From an uncultured Syntrophomonadaceae bacterium (GTDB lineage: Bacteria; Bacillota; Dethiobacteria; DTU022): 64,000 bases of DNA. This document shows positions 1 through 9,929 of this stretch, one piece after another; position 1 is the first letter of the stretch; each line of letters starts with the position of its first letter. A program made the translations under genes and the position numbers. Under the pieces are notes generated by a model, which was not told the DNA's origin, ran no database searches, and saw only the letters and a list, made by a program, of their open reading frames with translations. Location of the stretch: the NCBI GenBank assembly GCA_964390725.1, contig CAYMIW010000002.1, positions 6,875-70,874 of the forward strand, in the 5' to 3' direction.

Positions 1-514
1 AATTCTTCTTGGTCGAAAACCATATATCAAGTGGGACGCAACGTCAGAAGATATGCAGATCGTGCGCGACATAATGAAGAAAATGAAGTTGGAAGACTTT
101 GCACTGCGCAATGTTGCCGAGCTTTCAGGCGGAGAAACACAGAAGGTAATGCTGGCCAGAGCGCTTGCCCAGGAACCAAGACTATTACTGCTTGATGAGC
201 CCACGAGCAACCTTGACCCGCGCAATCAACATGAAGTGCTCCGTCTAGTTAAGATAATCGCCCGGGAGCACAATATCTGCGTGGCTATCGTTATTCACGA
301 CCTCAACCTCGCGGTTCGTTACTGCGACCGTTTCTTATTCCTCAAGGAGTCGAAAGTTTTTTCTTATGGCGGCTTAGAGGTTATGACCCCGGAAAATATA
401 GAAGAAGTATATCAAATACATGCTCAAATTATAGAATACAAAGGAGTCCCGGTTATAGTTCCTTTTCCTGATGATGAAGTAAATGTTAATTATTCTGTCG
501 GAAAAATTAAATAA
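1..514 (+). CDS. ABC transporter ATP-binding protein, iron-chelate/cobalamin uptake type (FepC/FecE/BtuD-like), 5'-truncated at window edge
   Basis: Reading frame is open from base 2. ABC signature LSGGETQKV, Walker B LLLLDEPTSNLD, and H-loop IVIHDLNLAVRYCDR typical of iron-siderophore/B12 importer ATPases. Confidence 0.8.
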   Translation, partial: ILLGRKPYIKWDATSEDMQIVRDIMKKMKLEDFALRNVAELSGGETQKVMLARALAQEPRLLLLDEPTSNLDPRNQHEVLRLVKIIAREHNICVAIVIHDLNLAVRYCDRFLFLKESKVFSYGGLEVMTPENIEEVYQIHAQIIEYKGVPVIVPFPDDEVNVNYSVGKIK

Positions 515-1026
515 AAGCAAATAAAAGCTTTAGCCGTAGACTCCCCGGTCATGGATAGATTTAAAGTGAAAGATTGTTGGTAAACATACAATTAAATCTC
601 CAATATGTGCGAGCTTTAAATGAGCTCGCGCTTTGCCGTACCGTATTATATGCAAAACTATTATGCCAAAATATTGTTTTGCAATAATAATTTTGGTATG
701 GTAGCCAGTAAAAGTACAGCAGGAATTTAGTATAAGGGAATGAATAATAGCTGTAAAGGGTACCTAGCCTGTTGTAATATTAAAGCATATGAGCAAGTAG
801 AGGCTATATTTATGGGAGGTGTATCAGAGGTACATGTCTGAATGTGTGTCACTTGTTTTAGTTTCTATAGGCATCGCACTAAACCTTGTGGGTTTTATTT
901 GTCAGGCAAAGCACTTTGCAATGGCTGGCGCGCCTATAGCAGTGAGCCGCTATAGCCAAGGGTAATAAAGTTTAAAAGAAGATAAAAACGAATGTTAATA
1001 AATTAAAGCTTTGGTCAAAGAAAAGG

Positions 1027-1380
1027 ATGAGAAACTTATCTGCTTCTGACAGCTTAAGCATTGAGCTAAAAGAAGAGACTTTTATTAACGAGCGTATTGG
1101 TTTTAAGTCAGAGGTCTCAAGAGCCAAACGGATTAATCGGCTCGAACAGGCTTTTGAATATATTTATGATGAGATAGATTATAAAGACACGAAAATAAAT
1201 CTGCAGCATCAACGATTATCCAAATCACTAAACAAATTAGAGGAGCAAGTAAATAAGGAGAGCAAGCGGTTGGAAGCGTTTTCTAAAGAAGCAGTAACAG
1301 GGGATGTAAGGTTGCAGCTAAGAGGCTTGGTTTTTATAGGATCGGGCACATTTTTAATTTGCCAACACTGTGTTCATTAG
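1027..1380 (+). CDS. hypothetical coiled-coil protein with hydrophobic C-terminus
   Basis: 117-aa ORF with weak RBS (aaaagga), charged heptad-like sequence (LEEQVNKESKRLEAF) and a C-terminal hydrophobic tail. No recognised domain. Confidence 0.35.
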   Translation: MRNLSASDSLSIELKEETFINERIGFKSEVSRAKRINRLEQAFEYIYDEIDYKDTKINLQHQRLSKSLNKLEEQVNKESKRLEAFSKEAVTGDVRLQLRGLVFIGSGTFLICQHCVH

Positions 1381-1430
1381 TGCAACGTTTGTTTAGCTGG
1401 CTATAATGGCGAGTTATTTTTGAGTATTTA

Positions 1431-2255
1431 ATGCTAGAGTGGCTTTATGTAATCTACCATAGCCTTTTATTCGGAAGCATTCACTTCGGATTCGGTTGTG
1501 AACTAAGAGTGGTGGGTCAAATGGTTATCAGTCATAAGTCCAGAAAACTTCTTTGGGGAAAATCTGGAAACCGTTGTGCAATTTGCAGAGAGACACTTTC
1601 TGTGGAGAAATATAATTCGGTTGATGAGTCCTTAATTGGAGAAGAATGCCATATCATATCAAAATCAAAACAAGGGCCTCGCCACGAAGAGAAAGAGAAT
1701 TTCAACTATGATTCTTATGAAAACCTCATCCTTCTATGCAGAAATCATCATTCATTGATAGATCAGCAGTGGGATACATACACGATAGAATTAGTACGGG
1801 AGCTAAAAAGAAATCACGAGAAATGGGTAAGTAAAAAACTGCATGACGATAAAAAGAAGCCTGCAGAGATAAAGAGAATTGAAGATAATATACCAAAAGT
1901 GCTCACAGTGATAAAAGACGGAAAAACCTTGTTTGGTTTGATTAAAGGTGTCATGGCACATAATTTTGATTATGATGAAATAAAGAATAATGTGGAAAAG
2001 GAAATCATTCAGGAACTTAATTGCTGTATAAGTGAAACTATTGATGCCTGGGACTTGTATGAAGGAAGTTCATATATTGATTTGCACATAATGTTAGATG
2101 AGATAATTAGAAAACTAAGTGATATAGGAATCATGGTTTTTGGTGAGAATGAATTGATGTATTTGACTGGTGGAAACTCATCAGAAGATACACCGTGGAA
2201 GGTTGCTTATATCAAAGTAATGCATTCAGATAATCCTGAAGTATTAAAATTGTAA
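1431..2255 (+). CDS. HNH endonuclease domain protein with ~150-aa C-terminal domain of unknown function (alternative start ATG 1521)
   Basis: CAICRETL...ECHIISKSKQG...NLILLCRNHHSLID gives the C-x2-C / H / N / H-H spacing of the HNH nuclease motif. Downstream region has no recognisable domain. Confidence 0.65.
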   Translation: MLEWLYVIYHSLLFGSIHFGFGCELRVVGQMVISHKSRKLLWGKSGNRCAICRETLSVEKYNSVDESLIGEECHIISKSKQGPRHEEKENFNYDSYENLILLCRNHHSLIDQQWDTYTIELVRELKRNHEKWVSKKLHDDKKKPAEIKRIEDNIPKVLTVIKDGKTLFGLIKGVMAHNFDYDEIKNNVEKEIIQELNCCISETIDAWDLYEGSSYIDLHIMLDEIIRKLSDIGIMVFGENELMYLTGGNSSEDTPWKVAYIKVMHSDNPEVLKL

Positions 2256-2395
2256 GTGAGTGTGGAGAAATAGGGCCAGACTCGTCTCTCTTTATTAGTT
2301 ATAATATCTAACAATAAATGTTGCATAATGTTACAATTAGGTGTAAACTATCTGAGAGTGATGCGTTCATATGTATTGTAGAAAGGAGGGGTATC

Positions 2396-2722
2396 ATGAA
2401 TAAATTAGCAGATCGTATTAAAGCATGTAGGAATAAATTGCACCTCTCCCAGGAATATGTAGCGAATTATATGGCTATGAACAGAGCGACGATAACACAA
2501 ATCGAACTTGGTAAAAGGAAGGTTGCTGCTGAAGAACTTGCAAAATTTAGCACTTTATTTGGTATATCAGCAGATGCACTTCTTCATGGTGAAAATATTG
2601 GAGCACCAGTAACAGTTTTCGCCAGAAGTTTTAGTGAGCTTGATGAAAAAGATCAAGATGAAATTATGAGCTTGATGCAGTTTAAAAAACTCATGAAAGC
2701 GCAAAGTCTCATTAATGAATGA
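2396..2722 (+). CDS. XRE-family helix-turn-helix transcriptional regulator
   Basis: RBS aaaggaggg 6 nt before ATG 2396. LSQEYVANYMAMNRATITQIELGKRKV is a Cro/C1 HTH. Stop overlaps the start of the next gene (ATGA at 2715). Confidence 0.8.
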   Translation: MNKLADRIKACRNKLHLSQEYVANYMAMNRATITQIELGKRKVAAEELAKFSTLFGISADALLHGENIGAPVTVFARSFSELDEKDQDEIMSLMQFKKLMKAQSLINE

Positions 2723-4070
2723 TTTTTATAGTGCTGCTAAATCTATGGAAAATGCTGAAGAACTGGCTGAATTATACCTGCAACACTACTATAAAGATCG
2801 CGAAATATCGTTTCCTATTAACCCCTTTCAGATGCTGATAGATGAAGGCGTAAAGTTTGTCATCCGCGACTTCGGAAAGCTGGAAGGGGTTTATATTCCT
2901 GCCCATGATCAAGATGACATTCCTATTGTCGGTATCAATTTAAACCGACCAATCACTCGCCAACGCTTTACTGCAGCGCATGAATTATGTCACTTTATCA
3001 AGGATTCCGAAGGCCAGATATGCCCAAAAATTGGGATAAAATCGGCCATAGAGAAGTTCGCTGATAGTTTTGCTTCAGGAATACTGATGCCGTTAGGTGA
3101 ATTGCGATTACAAGTAGATAAGCGCAGGGAAAATGGATATGTTAATTTTGACGATATACTAGAAATAGCTGATTACTTTGGTGTCAGCTTTGAATCTTGT
3201 TTGTTCCGTATTGCATATTTAATTCATGCGGTACATGGTAATACTGAGATTAAGGAATTGAGGAAAAGAATCCGAAAATACAAACCAGATTATAAACGGA
3301 AAGAATGCGGATTTCATAACGTATCTCTTTACGATGGATTAATTAATTCGTATGAACATGCACTCAGGTTTATTCCAAATAAATTTGCACTTAATGTATT
3401 CCAAAATAAGTATATTTATAATGACAGCCGTTTGGAGGGCGTAGATGTTGATATTGAGACGGCTGCTGAAATTGTTACTGATATTCGACTTAGGAAGCAA
3501 AGAAGTAAATATTGCACAGAAGAAAACGAAGCTTATTTATCAATCGCCGGACATTCAACCATGTATTCTTTGATTTTTGAATTGCCGTTACCGGATAAAT
3601 GCTCTGTATTTGATATGGTTACATTACACAGAAGATTATACTCCTGCTTCCCATACCCTGAATATGGCGGACAATTTCGTGATAGTAACGCACTTGTTTT
3701 AGGAGCAAAATTTGAAACGACTGACTACAAAGATATATTACGTAGATTGATAGAACTCGATGAAAAAGCGAAAACTGTTTTTGAATTAAGATCAGAAACT
3801 TCTATTAGCTCATACTTAAAATCTGCTATTCAACTGCATCATGAATTAACAGTTGTCCATCCCTTTAATGATGGAAATGGCCGCACATTAAGAGCTTTTT
3901 TAAATGTTATGCTGATACGAAACTATCTTACGCCTGTGTATCTCAAGGTTGAAGATAAAAATGAGTACATTGAGGCCCTTGCTGCTGCAGACAAGGATGC
4001 AGATTATTCTCAGTTGTTTGAGCTCTTTTATAAAGCAATATTGAGGACAAATGTTGAATTGACCAGATAA
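2715..4070 (+). CDS. ImmA/IrrE-family (DUF955) zinc metallopeptidase fused to a C-terminal Fic (FIDO) domain
   Basis: N-terminal HEXXH (AAHELCHFI) in a DUF955/ImmA context. C-terminal canonical Fic motif HPFNDGNGRTLRAF. Translationally coupled to the upstream XRE gene. Confidence 0.75.
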   Translation: MNDFYSAAKSMENAEELAELYLQHYYKDREISFPINPFQMLIDEGVKFVIRDFGKLEGVYIPAHDQDDIPIVGINLNRPITRQRFTAAHELCHFIKDSEGQICPKIGIKSAIEKFADSFASGILMPLGELRLQVDKRRENGYVNFDDILEIADYFGVSFESCLFRIAYLIHAVHGNTEIKELRKRIRKYKPDYKRKECGFHNVSLYDGLINSYEHALRFIPNKFALNVFQNKYIYNDSRLEGVDVDIETAAEIVTDIRLRKQRSKYCTEENEAYLSIAGHSTMYSLIFELPLPDKCSVFDMVTLHRRLYSCFPYPEYGGQFRDSNALVLGAKFETTDYKDILRRLIELDEKAKTVFELRSETSISSYLKSAIQLHHELTVVHPFNDGNGRTLRAFLNVMLIRNYLTPVYLKVEDKNEYIEALAAADKDADYSQLFELFYKAILRTNVELTR

Positions 4071-4176
4071 ACAAGATAGGGGATACTTTATTTGACTTCT
4101 TGTTAAGCTTCTTCAAGTTAACCAAACAGCCCCTCTGATTAATTAATCCAGCTTCGTGAAGCCTTATAGTAAGGTT

Positions 4177-4272
4177 GCGGAGAATAACCCCATATTCAGT
4201 GCAATATTTGCGGAGAATAGTTGACTGTGCGGAGATTAAATGGTATATTTGTTGCATAATGTGCGGAGATTA
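4177..4272 (+). promoter_or_regulatory. Four direct repeats GCGGAGA(A/T)TA (4177, 4210, 4229, 4263) overlapping a sigma-A-like promoter TTGACT(4221)-17-TATATT(4244) upstream of the Fic gene
   Basis: Exact 10-mers read from the sequence at the four positions. One copy sits in the promoter spacer and one overlaps the RBS. Confidence 0.4.
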
Positions 4273-4276
4273 TTTA

Positions 4277-5380
4277 ATGTATATTTATGAGAATCCAACA
4301 TGGCCGGAGTTTAAGTGGGGAAATGATAAAATTTTACCCCTGCTTTCTAATGTACGCTTTAAACAAGGAGCAATTGTTGGTGAAATGGGAGCTTTAGGTT
4401 TTGAATTAAAAGACCAGGCAAACCTTGAGATGTTAACGAAAGATATTATTAAAACAGCTGAAATAGAAGGAGAGCTGCTTAATCAAGATCAAGTGCGTTC
4501 ATCAATAGCCCGGCGCTTGGGTTTAGAAGTTTCTGGTTTAATAGCGTCCGACAGAAATGTTGATGGTATAGTTGATATGATGCTTGACGCAACAGGAAAT
4601 TACAACAAAGAACTTAACAAAGAAAGACTATACTCATGGCATAGTTCTCTATTCCCGGCAGGCTATAGTGGTATTAATAAAATAATCACTGCTAACTGGA
4701 GAAATGATTCAGCAGGGCCGATGCAAGTTGTATCAGGTCCTGTAAGTAAAGAAAAAGTGCATTACCAGGCTCCTGCTGCAGAAAAAGTTGATCAGGAAAT
4801 GCAACGATTCTTCGAATGGTTTAACGGCAGCCAGGAAATTGATTTAGTAATAAAGGCAGGCATTGCCCATCTCTGGTTTGTTACCATACACCCTTTTGAT
4901 GACGGTAACGGCAGGATAGCCAGGGCTTTAACAGATATGAGCCTGGCTCAATCCGACAAACAACCATATCGTTTTTACAGTATGTCAACGCAGATTAGAA
5001 ATGAAAGAGCAAGTTACTATGAAATACTGGAGAAAACGCAAAAAGGGAAGCTTGATATAACCGCATGGTTAGAGTGGTTTTTGAATTGTCTTTTAAATTC
5101 TCTGGAAGCTTCCGAAACAATCCTAAGCAAAGTTATTTTTAAACATAACTTTTGGCTTGCGCATGCTTCAAAGATAGACAATGACAGACAAAGGAAAGTG
5201 CTGAATCTGCTGCTGGATGGAATTGATGGAAAACTTACTACATCAAAATGGGCTAAGCTTTGCAAGTGTTCGCAAGATACAGCATTAAGAGATATACAAG
5301 ATTTAATAGACAAACAAATTTTATCTAAAATGCCCGGTGGTGGTAGAAGTACGAGTTATGCCATTAACAGAGAAGATTAA
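4277..5380 (+). CDS. Fic family protein (class II, N-terminal inhibitory helix; C-terminal winged-helix), putative AMP-transferase
   Basis: Canonical Fic motif HPFDDGNGRIARAL. Inhibitory-helix motif TAEIEGE ((S/T)xxxE(G/N)) upstream. ATG at 4277 lies downstream of the promoter-like element. The longer ORF from 4175 is less likely. Confidence 0.8.
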   Translation: MYIYENPTWPEFKWGNDKILPLLSNVRFKQGAIVGEMGALGFELKDQANLEMLTKDIIKTAEIEGELLNQDQVRSSIARRLGLEVSGLIASDRNVDGIVDMMLDATGNYNKELNKERLYSWHSSLFPAGYSGINKIITANWRNDSAGPMQVVSGPVSKEKVHYQAPAAEKVDQEMQRFFEWFNGSQEIDLVIKAGIAHLWFVTIHPFDDGNGRIARALTDMSLAQSDKQPYRFYSMSTQIRNERASYYEILEKTQKGKLDITAWLEWFLNCLLNSLEASETILSKVIFKHNFWLAHASKIDNDRQRKVLNLLLDGIDGKLTTSKWAKLCKCSQDTALRDIQDLIDKQILSKMPGGGRSTSYAINRED

Positions 5381-5622
5381 GCGAACGGGCATGATGAAGT
5401 TCTTTGAATACGGAAGTAAAGATATAGATTATCTAAAGTGCAGAGAAAAGAAGCTGGGCGCTGCTATAGAGTGAATAGGGTTTATTGAGCGGGCGGTAAT
5501 ACCCGATCCTTTTGCTGCCCTGATATCATCAACTCCCGCCTATCAAGTTTAATGTATAATGAAAGCAGGAGCTAATCAATTGTTTGGTTAGAAATAGCCG
5601 TAGGGAGGCAGTTCGTGACATG

Positions 5623-5877
5623 AGTAAAGACTATTTTAAGTTGCAGCGCCCCAGTCATTCACTACCGGGATTTGTTAAACAAACTCTGAAAAAGCGTGGG
5701 CTTCTGGAGGCATATCAGAAAAGACCTGCTTATCAGCAAAATGACTATATTGGCTGGATAAATGAAGTGAAACTTCCGGAGATCAAACAAAAGCGGCTTG
5801 ACCAAATGCTTGATGAGCTTGAGAAGGGTGGTATCTACATGGGTATGGACCACCCTTCTCCTCAAAAAAATGAATAA
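5623..5877 (+). CDS. YdeI/OmpD-associated family protein (DUF1801-like)
   Basis: C-terminal PAYQQNDYIGWINEVKLPEIKQKRLDQMLDELEKG resembles the conserved YdeI family C-terminus. Start chosen at MSKDYFK. Confidence 0.5.
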   Translation, partial: SKDYFKLQRPSHSLPGFVKQTLKKRGLLEAYQKRPAYQQNDYIGWINEVKLPEIKQKRLDQMLDELEKGGIYMGMDHPSPQKNE

Positions 5878-6155
5878 CATAAATGATCAGGGTCAAAGCT
5901 TGCAATCAAGCAAACCTTACAATAGCCTGTTTCCATGGACAGACCACTTCGAAAACCTCTATGATGAGGCTAAAATCTATGCGCTTGTCAGAGGAATTGT
6001 CGTTGATCTAAACATTGACGAGAATATGCGAATACATGACCTTGGCTGAGGGCGTGGCCTTTACAAACGCGCAGGTAAACAGGAATTTCTTGAGCAGATA
6101 GCCGTAATAAAAAGCACAAGAAATTGGTCTTAGGTAAATGATTGGAGGTTTATAA

Positions 6156-6800
6156 ATGAACAGAATCATTAGGATTAGGAATGAAAAAGAATCAGATTAT
6201 GAGAAAGTAGAAGACATCACCAGGAAAGCTTTTTGGAATTTATATATCCCGGGATGTATTGAACACTATTTAGTTCATGTTATGCGGCCACATATAGATT
6301 TTCTGCCGGAGTTGGATTTGGTGATTGAAGTTGATAATCAAATCATCGGGAATGTTATGTATACAAAAACAAAACTAATCGATGAGGATGGTGAAGGAAA
6401 AGACATCCTTACATTCGGTCCAGTTTGCATTTTACCAGAATATCAGAGAAAGGGGTATGGAAAAAAACTAATGGAGCACTCCTTTGAACAGGCAGTTGCG
6501 CTTGGTTATGATGTGATTGTGATTTATGGTAACCCAGGCAATTATGTAAGCCGCGGTTTTAAGAGTTGTAAGAAATACAATGTCTGTCTTGAGAATGGGA
6601 CATATCCGGCGGCAATGATAGTAAAAGAACTCAAGCCAGATGCACTGGACGGGAGAAAATGGGTTTACCATCAAAGTACAGTATATGAGATAGATGAACA
6701 AGAAGCAGGGCGCTTTGACGATGGGTTGGAGAGCCTGGAGAAAAAACATCAGCCAAGTCAGGAAGAATTTTATATTTACAGTCATTCTATAATACAGTGA
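6156..6800 (+). CDS. GNAT family N-acetyltransferase
   Basis: RBS ggagg. Acetyl-CoA binding motif QRKGYGKKLMEH. Confidence 0.8.
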   Translation: MNRIIRIRNEKESDYEKVEDITRKAFWNLYIPGCIEHYLVHVMRPHIDFLPELDLVIEVDNQIIGNVMYTKTKLIDEDGEGKDILTFGPVCILPEYQRKGYGKKLMEHSFEQAVALGYDVIVIYGNPGNYVSRGFKSCKKYNVCLENGTYPAAMIVKELKPDALDGRKWVYHQSTVYEIDEQEAGRFDDGLESLEKKHQPSQEEFYIYSHSIIQ

Positions 6801-7342
6801 ATATCCTTTCATGGTATAAGAGTAAGCTACAACTTCCTATTAGCAGGTGGGGCAGATGAAAAACCTGGGAATATAAGTTTAAAAGCGTTATGGTAACTAT
6901 TCTCATTATCACAAACAAAATTATAACCCGGAATATATAATATAAGATGGCGCGAGATGAAGGAGCAAAAGACGCGCTTGGTTTTAAAAAAGGCAATACT
7001 CCCAAAGATTTGCTCAAAAGGTATACCATCTTCGGATTTTGAAGAATGTTTCGCCACTGTGCCGCTGTTTTGGAAAAAGGTAACACAAAGCGAGATTATA
7101 CCGAGACTCTGTACCCTGTTGAATCAGGAGCCGAGAGGCCTCCTTGGAGTGAGCACCTGCATGAACGGCAAGAATTTCCGAATAGATGGCATCATAATAA
7201 TTGCTAAGTTTAGTATCTAATTTATATTGACTACTCCACTATTATAATTAATAAGGCGAATAGGGAGGCAGGTAGGGCTGGAAATATTAAATTGACAGAT
7301 CTGACCCTATAAGAACTCTCATCTTAAACTGGAAGTGCGGTA

Positions 7343-8908
7343 GTGCCAATGGTTCAAATAGTAGTGCTTCTCTATCTTTTCTTTGCAGTGCTGGTGGCCC
7401 TGTCTTTTGCTATTTACTTGCTCAACCGGGGGCGAACCGGTGTTACAATTAGTTTTGCATTGTTGAACCTTTGCATTGCTGTATATCTGCTCGGGTATAT
7501 GGTCGAAATTAGTGTAATAAATCTCTCAGACATGCTGTTTTGGAATCAGATACAATACATGGGGATCCCCTTTTTACCTTCTTTCTGGCTTCTGGTTTGT
7601 TTACTCTACACCAAAAAACTTAATAAAATATCTTTAATGCCTACACTGATTCTATTTGTCTTTCCGGTTATTGTTTTTTTAGCCCGGTTGACCAATGAGT
7701 TTCACCATTTATTCTATGCATCATATGAAGTTATCAGCTTTGGCAGCTTGAATCTGCTGCGCTTAACAAAAGGCCCTGTATATCAAGCGCATACCATATT
7801 TGCGACGTTATGCTTAATAGTTGCAACGGTAACTTACCTTCACGCTGCCGGGAAAGTCGAGGGAAGGGAAAGGCAGGGATATCAGCTGATGCTGATATCT
7901 TCGATGATTCCTTATGCAGCGCTGCTATTAATGATTTTTGATCCTACCAACAAGGGTATAGATTATGCAGCTTTTCTATTTCCTGTTTCGCTCTGTTTGA
8001 TCTTCTTTGCATTATCACAATACGACGTGCTGTCTATCAGGGCTTTTGCTAAAGATAATTTATTTTACCAGAGTCAAGATGCAATGCTGGTTATTGATAA
8101 GGAAGGGCTACTGCTGGATTATAATTGGCAGGCCCGAGACCTGTTTTTACCTCTTGCAGATGGTTCTAAAGTTAAAGAAAAACAAATTCAACAAACATTA
8201 CAGGGATACCCACAATTAATTGAAGTAATTAAAGCCGGAGTTTCTACAGATTTGATTCTGGATGTAATAAATAATAAAAGGCATTATGAAGTCAGGTGCA
8301 CTATTTTAACAAACCTTCACCGGCGGGTGGTCGGGAAAATAGTGACCCTTAGAGACATTACAGATCGTAAAATTATTGAGGAAGCCCTACGCGAAAGCGA
8401 AGAAAAACACAGGATGTTAGCTACAACCGATACATTGACAGGTTTACACAATCGGTTTTACTTTATGAAAAGGGCCGAAGATGAATTTAATCGGTTCCAG
8501 CGTTACGGCAAGCCTTTTAGTCTTTTAATGATTGATCTTGATTGTTTTAAAGAAGTAAACGACAAGTATGGTCACGCTGGTGGGGATGAAGTGCTGAAGC
8601 AAATTGGATTTCTTATGGGTGGCAATTTTAGAAAAACAGATATTACCGGCAGGCTGGGTGGCGAAGAATTCTGTGTGCTTATGCCGGAAACCACGCCTGA
8701 AGATGCCTGGACAGCTGCAGAAGCATTTCGTCAAACTTTGGAAAATACGATCATTAATAATGGAGACCGTGCTATTACGGTCACCTGCAGTATAGGTATT
8801 TCCAGCTCCAATAAAAACAACCACCGTTTTGATGAAGTTTTGAAACAGGCGGATCAGGCCCTCTATCGTGCAAAACACCAAGGTCGAAACCGTTCCTGTC
8901 TGCTTTAG
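7343..8908 (+). CDS. membrane-anchored PAS-GGDEF diguanylate cyclase (about 7 N-terminal TM helices)
   Basis: About 230 aa of hydrophobic helices, then a PAS-like region, then GGDEF domain with DTLTGLHNR and active-site RLGGEEF. Confidence 0.85.
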   Translation: MPMVQIVVLLYLFFAVLVALSFAIYLLNRGRTGVTISFALLNLCIAVYLLGYMVEISVINLSDMLFWNQIQYMGIPFLPSFWLLVCLLYTKKLNKISLMPTLILFVFPVIVFLARLTNEFHHLFYASYEVISFGSLNLLRLTKGPVYQAHTIFATLCLIVATVTYLHAAGKVEGRERQGYQLMLISSMIPYAALLLMIFDPTNKGIDYAAFLFPVSLCLIFFALSQYDVLSIRAFAKDNLFYQSQDAMLVIDKEGLLLDYNWQARDLFLPLADGSKVKEKQIQQTLQGYPQLIEVIKAGVSTDLILDVINNKRHYEVRCTILTNLHRRVVGKIVTLRDITDRKIIEEALRESEEKHRMLATTDTLTGLHNRFYFMKRAEDEFNRFQRYGKPFSLLMIDLDCFKEVNDKYGHAGGDEVLKQIGFLMGGNFRKTDITGRLGGEEFCVLMPETTPEDAWTAAEAFRQTLENTIINNGDRAITVTCSIGISSSNKNNHRFDEVLKQADQALYRAKHQGRNRSCLL

Positions 8909-9929
8909 GCTATCTTCTCGCATTGATCAAACATTTTAGGCCAGTTTCCCCTGTAGATAAAATATGTAATTTCAAGACATGGCTTAAATGGTCATTGTAT
9001 GACTCAAACTTTGCATTTTCAGGATAATGTAGTATCCTATCGATTTGCAACAGATGTCTCTTCAGGGGGGGTGGTATTAGTAATCATATCACATGTTTGC
9101 AGTTTCAAGAGCTTTGTATTATTTACAAGAATTGAGCTGGATGTTTTAAATCATCACAAGAATTACGTAAAATTTCTGTGCTATAATACTCAAAAATACT
9201 GCGAATTATTAATTAATTATAGTATTATGAGATGTTTATGAAACAATTCACAAGACTGAATACTATTAACAGTCCGGGAGATTGTGTATGAATTGGAGCT
9301 GACGATATGTATGATTTTATAATGACTAAAGCAGCTCGCACTATAGCGGAAGACATGTACCGCCTGAAAAAAGGGGAGTCATGGTGATTACCTTAGACAC
9401 AGAATCGGAACAATGGGTCGTTGAGGCATTGGCGGGAGTTTTGTACCTTGCAGATTCAAGGATAGGGTTTAATATCCAATGGTTATTGTTTTCCATTCCA
9501 TTTGAAGTTGCCGTTGAAAAATATTCAAACTTGCGTTGTCTCTGTTTGATCATGATGAATGTAGAGATGATGATTCGCCTCATCGGCTGTGTTAATCAAC
9601 CTGCTTTATCTTCCCTTCAAAAAAAAGTAACTAATACCACCAGAAAATACAAAAATATATGCTTTAACAGAACGATGGTTTTTGGTGGATCTGTAAAGCC
9701 ACCCTGTGTCTTGCTTGTTAATCTGTTTCGGATGTCAGGGAAAAAGGGTTGTATTACTGCTGAGACAAGAGGATTTAAGGTAGATAGGGCATGTGCTTAA
9801 AGGCTTCCGTATGGCTGAATGATCGACAGATCATGGATCAAAAAATATTATCGAGCCAGATCTGAAGGTTCTTATGGAAGAGATTTTATAGTATTTTTCC
9901 CATGATGACCAACTATAGGAGGAGATGAC

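Follow-up and report, generated by a model that had tools for sequence, protein, structure and literature searches.

Results

The 64-kb stretch of DNA analyzed here (hereafter the window), from contig CAYMIW010000002.1 of an uncultured Syntrophomonadaceae bacterium, carries on its forward strand two overlapping genes encoding a small XRE-type repressor and a zinc peptidase joined in one polypeptide to a Fic domain. The first gene (2396..2722, ATG at 2396, TGA at 2722) is preceded by an AGGAGG ribosome-binding site at 2384-2389 and encodes a CapH-like repressor of 108 amino acids, with a helix-turn-helix (HTH) domain at residues 4-65 and a conserved two-helix C-terminal tail. The second (2715..4070, ATG at 2715, TAA at 4070) encodes a protein of 451 amino acids, in which a CapP-like M78 peptidase is followed by a helical linker and a Fic domain (hereafter the fusion). 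An earlier note on this DNA had read the locus as an XRE gene next to a peptidase-Fic fusion, and this is borne out by the open reading frames (ORFs), the Pfam domains, the HELCH motif of the peptidase, and the Fic catalytic motif HPFNDGNGRTLR. Both halves of the fusion are genuine members of their families, with Pfam matches above cutoff to Peptidase_M78 (PF06114, DUF955 in the earlier note; residues 45-166, 4.8e-14; score 52.7 bits, cutoff 22) and to Fic (residues 300-400, 1.4e-11; score 45.6 bits, cutoff 24), and the repressor matches HTH_3 (3e-10).

The possibility of a frameshift joining two separate genes, raised as a caveat in the earlier note, and that of a mis-assembly are ruled out by full-length homologues and by independent JGI, ENA, and Logan assemblies, in which the identical 451-amino acid protein is called in the same way on at least 18 contigs; in addition, the AlphaFold2 model of the fusion, built with 89 homologues, forms one confident body (predicted local distance difference test score (pLDDT) 92.5, predicted template modeling score (pTM) 0.91). 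The two ORFs overlap by 8 nt (ATGAATGA), which supports co-transcription and suggests translational coupling. The earlier note had gone on from this overlap to co-translation; the overlap itself stands, but it does not prove co-translation, and the junction varies across 75 homologous loci between a gap of 27 nt and an overlap of 11 nt. In its most frequent forms, the genes overlap by 4 nt (18 loci), abut directly (16), or overlap by 8 nt or 1 nt (12 each).

Conservation and genomic context of the cassette

A search for proteins combining M78/DUF955 and Fic domains, which the earlier note had proposed, showed that the fusion is conserved, with many full-length homologues carrying both domains. 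The 120 best matches in a collection of 5.8 billion proteins are full-length or near-full-length and share 53-100% identity with the fusion, nearly all of them being recorded with both Pfam domains, and a representative library at 50% identity holds about 31 full-length clusters, down to 28% identity. Both catalytic motifs are retained in more than 120 full-length homologues, the most distant of them at 25% identity. Residues R82, H89, E90, H93, and E241 and the stretch H382-P-F-x-D-G-N-G-R-x-x-R393 are invariant in 29 members at 25-54% identity; because both catalytic centers are invariant at this distance, both enzymes are under long-term purifying selection. In a scan of one genome per species, 136 genomes carried the fusion, mostly those of Clostridia (Lachnospiraceae, Oscillospiraceae, Clostridiaceae, Acetobacterium, and Proteiniclasticum), with scattered hosts among the Coriobacteriia, Anaerolineae, Spirochaetales, and Erysipelotrichaceae. 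Databases label the fusion either "ImmA/IrrE family metallo-endopeptidase" or "Fic family protein," and full-text literature searches combining M78, ImmA, or COG2856 with Fic returned no description of an M78-Fic fusion. What is new here is therefore an uncharacterized module and not a rarity, the architecture being common in databases. Proteins in which M78 is joined to a DDE transposase, a Mur ligase C domain, or FolD (P0153, P0178, and P0187) were rejected as probable chimeric metagenome assemblies or genes disrupted by insertion sequences rather than real architectures.

The repressor gene is an obligatory companion of the fusion: in each of the 75 loci that extend far enough upstream, the gene immediately before the fusion, on the same strand, is a homologous XRE gene encoding about 105 amino acids. 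A third conserved gene was not found when the ORFs within about 5 kb were clustered in 78 loci and the neighbors were scanned with Pfam and PADLOC; the neighbors are scattered HTH proteins, integrases, methyltransferases, and ABC transporters. Because no gene beyond the XRE-fusion pair is conserved, the cassette is autonomous, and no separate multi-gene immune operon of the kind that accompanies CapH/CapP adjoins it in the loci examined. Integrases or recombinases adjoin the cassette in several loci, and defense genes are sometimes nearby. Predicted prophage contigs of IMG/VR (L091-L093) carry it beside tandem serine integrases, and the Bacillus pumilus FUA2119 "plasmid" NZ_CP154914.1, which is a phage-like circular replicon of 40.5 kb, has a 35% identical pair of an XRE-like and an M78-Fic protein (L081, 4630-6365) between its lysis genes and its integrase, along with a separate ImmA and HTH immunity pair. 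No full-length fusion was found in 50,697 deposited phage genomes. As a small operon of apparently autoregulated type in mobile and variable contexts, the cassette has the organization expected of type II or three-component toxin-antitoxin systems.

Putative operators and promoter of the operon

The region upstream of the XRE gene contains two putative operators. O1 (AGTTATAATATCTAACA, 2297..2313, + strand) is an imperfect palindrome with the family consensus TGTTAG-N5-CTAACA, and O2 (TGTTGCATAATGTTACA, 2319..2335, + strand), 22 bp away from it center to center, overlaps the -35 hexamer and the spacer of the likely promoter. The latter (2321..2349, + strand) consists of a -35 element TTGCAT at 2321-2326, a 17-nt spacer, and a -10 element TAAACT at 2344-2349, and was placed by comparison with homologous loci, which have TTGCAA or TTGACA, 17 nt, and TATAAT at the same register; a consensus promoter scan gave a different site, 2308-2337. 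The layout upstream of the XRE genes is conserved and comprises a 17-bp palindrome (consensus TGTTAGAAAATCTAACA), 4-7 nt, a second similar site, and TATAAT, the second site in homologues being TGTTGCAAAATCTAACA, which contains the -35 hexamer and occupies the same place as O2. The pattern TGTTA-N7-TAACA, with at most one mismatch, is present in 38 of 72 homologous upstream regions as against 1.5% of control 140-mers, and the half-sites of the palindrome covary (TGTTGG..CCAACA, TGTCAG..CTGACA). In the window, the full palindromic operator occurs only at the promoter of the XRE-fusion pair. Tandem palindromes over a promoter are characteristic of an autorepressor that binds as a dimer, or possibly as a tetramer, and in this the XRE protein parallels CapH.

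The XRE repressor and its tail

The best PADLOC match of the XRE protein is capH (1e-11; residues 1-100, profile positions 4-98 of 103). Searches of the PDB with the XRE sequence and the XRE profile returned ImmR, DdrO, and phage repressors, with no CapH among the matches listed; the profile matched the ImmR N-terminal domain at 2e-7 and DdrOC at 3e-4. Across 47 partners of the fusion, the most conserved stretch of the repressor is not the HTH but F75-A76-R77-x-F79 of the tail together with L82, D86, E89-I90, L93, and F96-K97; R77 is invariant, and F75, A76, and F79 are each at least 90% conserved. In CapH, the peptidase cuts the F82-R83 bond, which lies in the first helix of the C-terminal domain, and the R83A substitution blocks cleavage (bioRxiv 10.1101/2022.04.27.489752). 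Likewise, F75-A76-R77-S78-F79 of the window protein (codons 2618..2632, + strand) falls in the first of two predicted C-terminal helices of a low-confidence model, and by analogy the FARxF motif may be the recognition and cleavage site of the peptidase. The C-terminal domain of CapH also mediates its dimerization and tetramerization, and a hydrophobic face of CapP serves as the docking site for the last helix of CapH. By our reading of the sequence, the (S/T)xxxE(G/N) motif of class I Fic antitoxins does not occur in the XRE tail.

The peptidase half of the fusion

CapP is the closest known relative of the peptidase half by two measures, capP being the best PADLOC match of the N-terminal half (6e-24; residues 21-169, profile positions 8-153 of 242) and Thauera CapP (7t5t) the best solved relative of the N-terminal 215 residues in a profile search (1.6e-8). 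The peptidase and the HTH-like linker that follows it (about residues 21-169; 2775..3221, + strand) include the HELCH motif of HExxH type (residues 89-93, 2979-2993), Cys103 (codon 3021-3023), and the Zn-ligand Glu113 (codon 3051-3053). In the profile alignment with 7t5t, Cys103, which is invariant within the close family, aligns with the cysteine-switch Cys of CapP, Glu113 with the third zinc ligand E129, and Arg82 with R90, an arginine contacting single-stranded DNA (ssDNA); the roles of these CapP residues are described in bioRxiv 10.64898/2026.05.16.725639. The pLDDT of the AlphaFold2 model is lower in the Cys103 loop, which is also shorter than the switch loop of CapP, an interval of 10 residues, instead of 16, separating the Cys from the Glu ligand. 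Only about one CapP protein in three has a cysteine-switch loop, and the Cys is likewise found in only part of the 29 divergent members of the fusion family.

The likeness to CapP ends after the linker. In CapP, the peptidase and its HTH-like linker lead into a GAF domain, which supplies one half of the ssDNA groove and is also where the HTH of CapH binds. The fusion has the HExxH motif, the third ligand Glu, and the HTH-like linker but lacks the GAF domain, since the capP match ends at position 153 of 242 and Pfam gives only M78 and Fic. The earlier note had described the genes as a CapH/CapP-like pair, which is right as regards the capH and capP matches and the gene order, but the second protein is not a CapP proper, its GAF domain being replaced by Fic. 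With Fic standing in for GAF, half of the ssDNA groove is gone, so that neither ssDNA nor DNA damage can be presumed to be the trigger.

The Fic half of the fusion

The Fic module (about residues 225-451; 3387..4067, + strand) has its catalytic motif HPFNDGNGRTLR at residues 382-393 (3858-3893), and this HxFx(D/E)GNGRxxR motif within a Fic fold is what would be expected of an AMPylation-competent Fic/Fido enzyme. The opening helix of the module carries a putative inhibitory-helix motif, N236-D-S-R-L-E241-G242 (3420..3440, + strand), whose Glu and Gly align with E234-G of the FICD sequence T-V-A-I-E234-G. The first position of the class II motif (S/T)xxxE(G/N) is an Asp (D237-S-R-L-E241-G), so that the fusion has DxxxEG where the class II enzymes FICD/HYPE, SoFic, CdFic, and BT_2513 have (S/T)xxxEG. 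It further differs from them in its N-terminal partner, a peptidase instead of the TPR of FICD or the DUF4172 of SoFic, and in having no C-terminal winged HTH. The inhibitory-helix glutamate E241, invariant in the 29 divergent members, leads us to expect a Fic domain that is autoinhibited, or else works in both directions as FICD does, and not one with constitutive activity.

The PADLOC hidden Markov model (HMM) for SoFic matches the fusion across the Fic part only (6e-13), and DUF4172 is absent. NCBIfam gives weak matches to the spr1629 repressor/antitoxin and to Fic toxins of toxin-antitoxin systems, and the fusion scores 39.4 bits with TIGR02613 (mobile mystery protein B), well below the cutoff of 124.4. 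Overexpression of wild-type SoFic, a class II Fic with an inhibitory helix, is toxic, and the protein serves in abortive infection against phages (PMC12249575); a 2026 preprint reports EF-Tu as a target of SoFic, with both AMPylation and de-AMPylation. Because SoFic is toxic on overexpression despite its inhibitory helix, derepression alone could suffice to make such an enzyme harmful.

Relation to known systems

CapH/CapP, a repressor and an ssDNA-activated Zn peptidase associated with the cyclic oligonucleotide-based antiphage signaling system (CBASS) (bioRxiv 10.1101/2022.04.27.489752; bioRxiv 10.64898/2026.05.16.725639), is the best PADLOC match of both proteins and the best PDB match of the N-terminal half of the fusion. 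The cassette shares with it a repressor of about 105 amino acids with an HTH and a C-terminal helical tail, encoded immediately upstream in the same operon, and, in the peptidase, the HExxH motif, the third ligand Glu, the HTH-like linker, a Cys in the loop after HExxH, and the Arg equivalent to R90. It differs in that Fic follows in place of GAF and no separate immune operon lies downstream. Other peptidase-repressor pairs have no effector domain: in ImmR/ImmA of ICEBs1 and phage phi105, ImmA is a stand-alone protein of about 170 amino acids and the pair controls genes of the mobile element, whereas in DdrO/IrrE of Deinococcus, IrrE has a GAF domain and the pair controls a chromosomal regulon.

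A second group of relatives are the three-component Xre-COG2856-toxin systems predicted by Makarova et al. 2009 (PMC2701414). Like these and RosmerTA, the cassette unites a repressor or antitoxin, a dedicated Zn peptidase, and a toxin-like component in one small mobile operon; those systems, however, usually have the peptidase in one protein with XRE and a separate toxin (RelE, PIN, or RmrT), whereas in the cassette the peptidase shares a polypeptide with the toxin-like domain and it is the XRE protein that stands alone. Fic is not among the COG2856 partners listed in PMC2701414. The HMMs for RmrA, an XRE and M78 fusion, match both cassette proteins weakly. The mobile mystery proteins A and B (TIGR02612/TIGR02613) also form XRE-Fic pairs, but from separate genes and with low similarity to the cassette. 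Finally, Lactobacillus gasseri plasmids carry the same three functions side by side as an unfused trio of ImmA, HTH, and Fic, which is only distantly related, its Fic being 27% identical to that of the window; in pHL20_1 (L082, 1395-3472), a divergent ImmA/IrrE gene (143 amino acids) lies next to an operon of HTH (213 amino acids) and Fic (284 amino acids). A faint resemblance links the C terminus of the pHL20_1 HTH protein (RSFEIL...EDKDQIIDFIEF) to the tail of the window XRE (FARSF...DQDEIMSLMQF).

The neighborhood of the cassette in the window

The cassette lies in a stretch of about 300-9900 that has a GC content of 33-41%, as against 42-47% beyond 9900, and is situated between two ABC-transporter operons. 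Its genes are an HNH gene, the cassette, a SoFic gene, and OmdA-like, GNAT, and 7TM-GGDEF genes; no integrase or tRNA was seen within it. The stretch looks like a variable island, and the neighborhood is suggestive of a defense island, although it is not conserved elsewhere. Upstream of the cassette, a gene for an HNH_2 nuclease of 274 amino acids (1431-2255, + strand), whose N-terminal half resembles CBASS SAVED-HNH effector nucleases and the PADLOC candidate PDC-M68A (1e-25 to 1e-27), is preceded by an ORF of 117 amino acids without family match (1027-1380, + strand), and the two (1027-2255) may form another small defense module. The only other neighbor shared with a homologous locus is the GNAT gene at 6156-6800, a close homologue of which lies at 2923-3567 of L022, about 1 kb from the cassette there.

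Downstream, 206 nt after the fusion gene, follows the SoFic-type gene (4277..5380, + strand; DUF4172, Fic, and winged HTH; PADLOC SoFic 1.7e-42, PHROG 5978 2e-67), which places two different Fic enzymes side by side. SoFic and HNH were considered as parts of the system and rejected as specific to the window, SoFic-like genes being near only two other loci. The region before the SoFic gene has features of its own. Four copies of TGCGGAGA (two TGCGGAGAAT and two TGTGCGGAGATTA), the only ones in the 64 kb, lie at 4176-4269 (+ strand) in the 94 nt before its start; the last copy provides its GGAG ribosome-binding site, and together the copies may act as an operator array or belong to a leader element. 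In the whole window there are just two exact copies of the 13-mer TGTTGCATAATGT, one at 2319-2331, within O2 and the -35 region of the XRE promoter, and the other at 4250-4262 (+ strand), just after a promoter-like TTGACT-17-TATATT upstream of SoFic; this sharing may reflect common regulation or the remnant of a duplication. The full palindromic operator was not found upstream of SoFic although the 13-mer is present, and a MAFFT alignment of the XRE and SoFic upstream regions was uninformative. Immediately downstream of SoFic, a small ORF at 5337-5474 (+ strand) encodes 45 amino acids from a GTG start (27 amino acids in public annotations) and resembles, by position only, the 47-amino acid anti-SoFic AS1 (PMC12249575).

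Discussion

Our analyses suggest, with moderate confidence and on the strength of sequence and analogy, that the cassette is an autonomous, autorepressed, and protease-gated Fic toxin module made of two genes and three domains, that is, a CapH/CapP-type switch with a built-in effector. That one polypeptide both derepresses its operon and AMPylates a target is plausible, because the XRE gene is always present, the operators lie over the promoter, the FARxF motif is conserved in the repressor tail, both active sites are invariant, and there is no separate effector. The precedent of SoFic, the copies that stand as cargo beside integrases, and the three-component systems predicted in PMC2701414 also speak for a toxin module of this kind. 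The XRE protein, probably as a dimer of dimers, would bind O1 and O2 over its own -35 element and keep the operon at a low level, as the conserved and covarying operators indicate. The CapP/IrrE-type zinc peptidase would be kept inactive by the Cys103 cysteine-switch loop until a trigger (DNA damage, ssDNA, or phage infection, to judge from the related systems) led it to cut the XRE protein in its FARxF tail; as in the homologous CapP/CapH, IrrE/DdrO, and ImmA/ImmR pairs, the cut repressor would then lose its dimerization and leave the DNA. Derepression would yield more peptidase-Fic protein in a positive feedback and possibly also remove XRE protein covering the Fic half, and the Fic domain would finally modify an essential host or phage protein, with growth arrest as a toxin-antitoxin or abortive-infection outcome. 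In this chain, the gene structure, the conservation, the operators, and the structural kinship to CapP and to class II-like Fic enzymes were observed directly, whereas the trigger, the cleavage, the toxicity, and the target are inferred.

In CapP/CapH, the CapH repressor is predicted to lie across both domains of CapP. A more specific and tentative extension of the proposed mechanism is that Fic occupies the structural place of GAF and that the XRE protein, whose HTH may dock on the Fic domain, also covers the Fic site as a protein antitoxin, so that one cut would both derepress the operon and unmask the AMPylase. If true, the fusion would be a one-polypeptide device for sensing, cutting, and killing, in immunity or addiction, with a trigger that may differ from ssDNA, half of the DNA groove being gone.

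Several observations weigh against the protease-gated toxin mechanism. The invariant Glu241 could mean that the Fic domain is mostly inactive, or a deAMPylase like FICD and SoFic, and not a toxin. The switch Cys is found in only about 16 of the 29 divergent members, and without GAF neither the trigger of CapP nor its mode of substrate docking is transferable to the fusion. The model that places FARSF in a helix is a single-sequence AlphaFold2 prediction with a pLDDT of 50, to be read for secondary structure only. Finally, the association of homologous loci with defense islands is weak and patchy.

The alternative that survives best, although we regard it as unlikely, is an addiction toxin-antitoxin system working without external signal, in which the XRE protein binds and represses Fic, the built-in peptidase takes over from Lon or Clp the degradation of the antitoxin, and the loss of the cassette or a block of translation leads to poisoning by Fic; such a system would stabilize mobile DNA and not serve in defense. 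The two-gene overlapping operon, its variable context and patchy phylogenetic spread (Clostridia, Bacilli, Coriobacteriia, Anaerolineae, and Spirochaetales), and the integrases and recombinases adjoining several loci all fit this account, as do the weak NCBIfam matches to spr1629 and Fic toxins and the listing of Xre-COG2856 among toxin-antitoxin components (PMC2701414). On the other hand, the likely autoinhibitory Cys loop and the fact that the peptidase is closest to the ssDNA-activated CapP suggest regulated and not constitutive cleavage, and the XRE tail lacks the class I Fic antitoxin motif.

The mobile contexts of the cassette also bring to mind an immunity or induction switch of the ImmR/ImmA type, in which the XRE protein would repress excision or lytic genes and be cleaved on SOS induction, with Fic as an add-on modifying a host factor. 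The ImmR N-terminal domain is indeed among the best PDB matches of the XRE profile, and integrases stand beside the pair in the IMG/VR contigs and the B. pumilus element. However, the window and most of the 75 loci have no adjacent integrase, excisionase, conjugation, or phage gene, the operators of the window are confined to the promoter of the pair itself, the B. pumilus element has its separate ImmA and HTH pair at the integrase, and the phage records yielded no full-length copy, all of which makes this explanation improbable.

We consider it quite improbable that Fic is a regulatory or sensor domain replacing GAF, the cassette then being a switch of transcription only, in which nucleotide binding by Fic, or the (de)AMPylation of XRE or peptidase, tunes cleavage; in the window, the switch would perhaps serve the neighboring SoFic gene. 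The position of Fic after peptidase and linker, where CapP and IrrE have their ligand-binding GAF, the inhibitory Glu shared with the bidirectional FICD and SoFic, and the recurrence of the exact O2 13-mer just upstream of SoFic speak for it. Against it stand the lack of a conserved downstream gene to regulate, the absence of the full palindromic operator upstream of SoFic, and the invariance of the full Fic catalytic motif over deep divergence. Lastly, an artifact of frameshift, assembly error, or chance motifs has a negligible chance of being the explanation in view of hundreds of full-length homologues, the identical sequence in independent assemblies, and the pTM of the model, even though the probable M78 chimeras show that the protein collection does contain artifacts of this sort.

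Peptidase-repressor switches such as ImmA/ImmR, IrrE/DdrO, and CapP/CapH are known as regulators of other genes, and Fic toxins are known to be held back by small antitoxins or internal helices. Here, both kinds are joined in a widespread and compact cassette of about 1.8 kb. The cassette is real and widespread, and its composition is of the sort to be expected from the modular recombination of defense and toxin-antitoxin parts. If the protease-gated Fic toxin mechanism is true, the cassette would provide a minimal system for the triggering of such a peptidase without a GAF sensor, for the release of an autoinhibited Fic enzyme, and for the coupling of transcriptional and post-translational toxin control through one cleavage. 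From an ecological point of view, the cassette is frequent among Clostridia of the gut and the rumen, and some copies are carried by prophages; it may therefore help these communities to resist phages or to maintain mobile elements.

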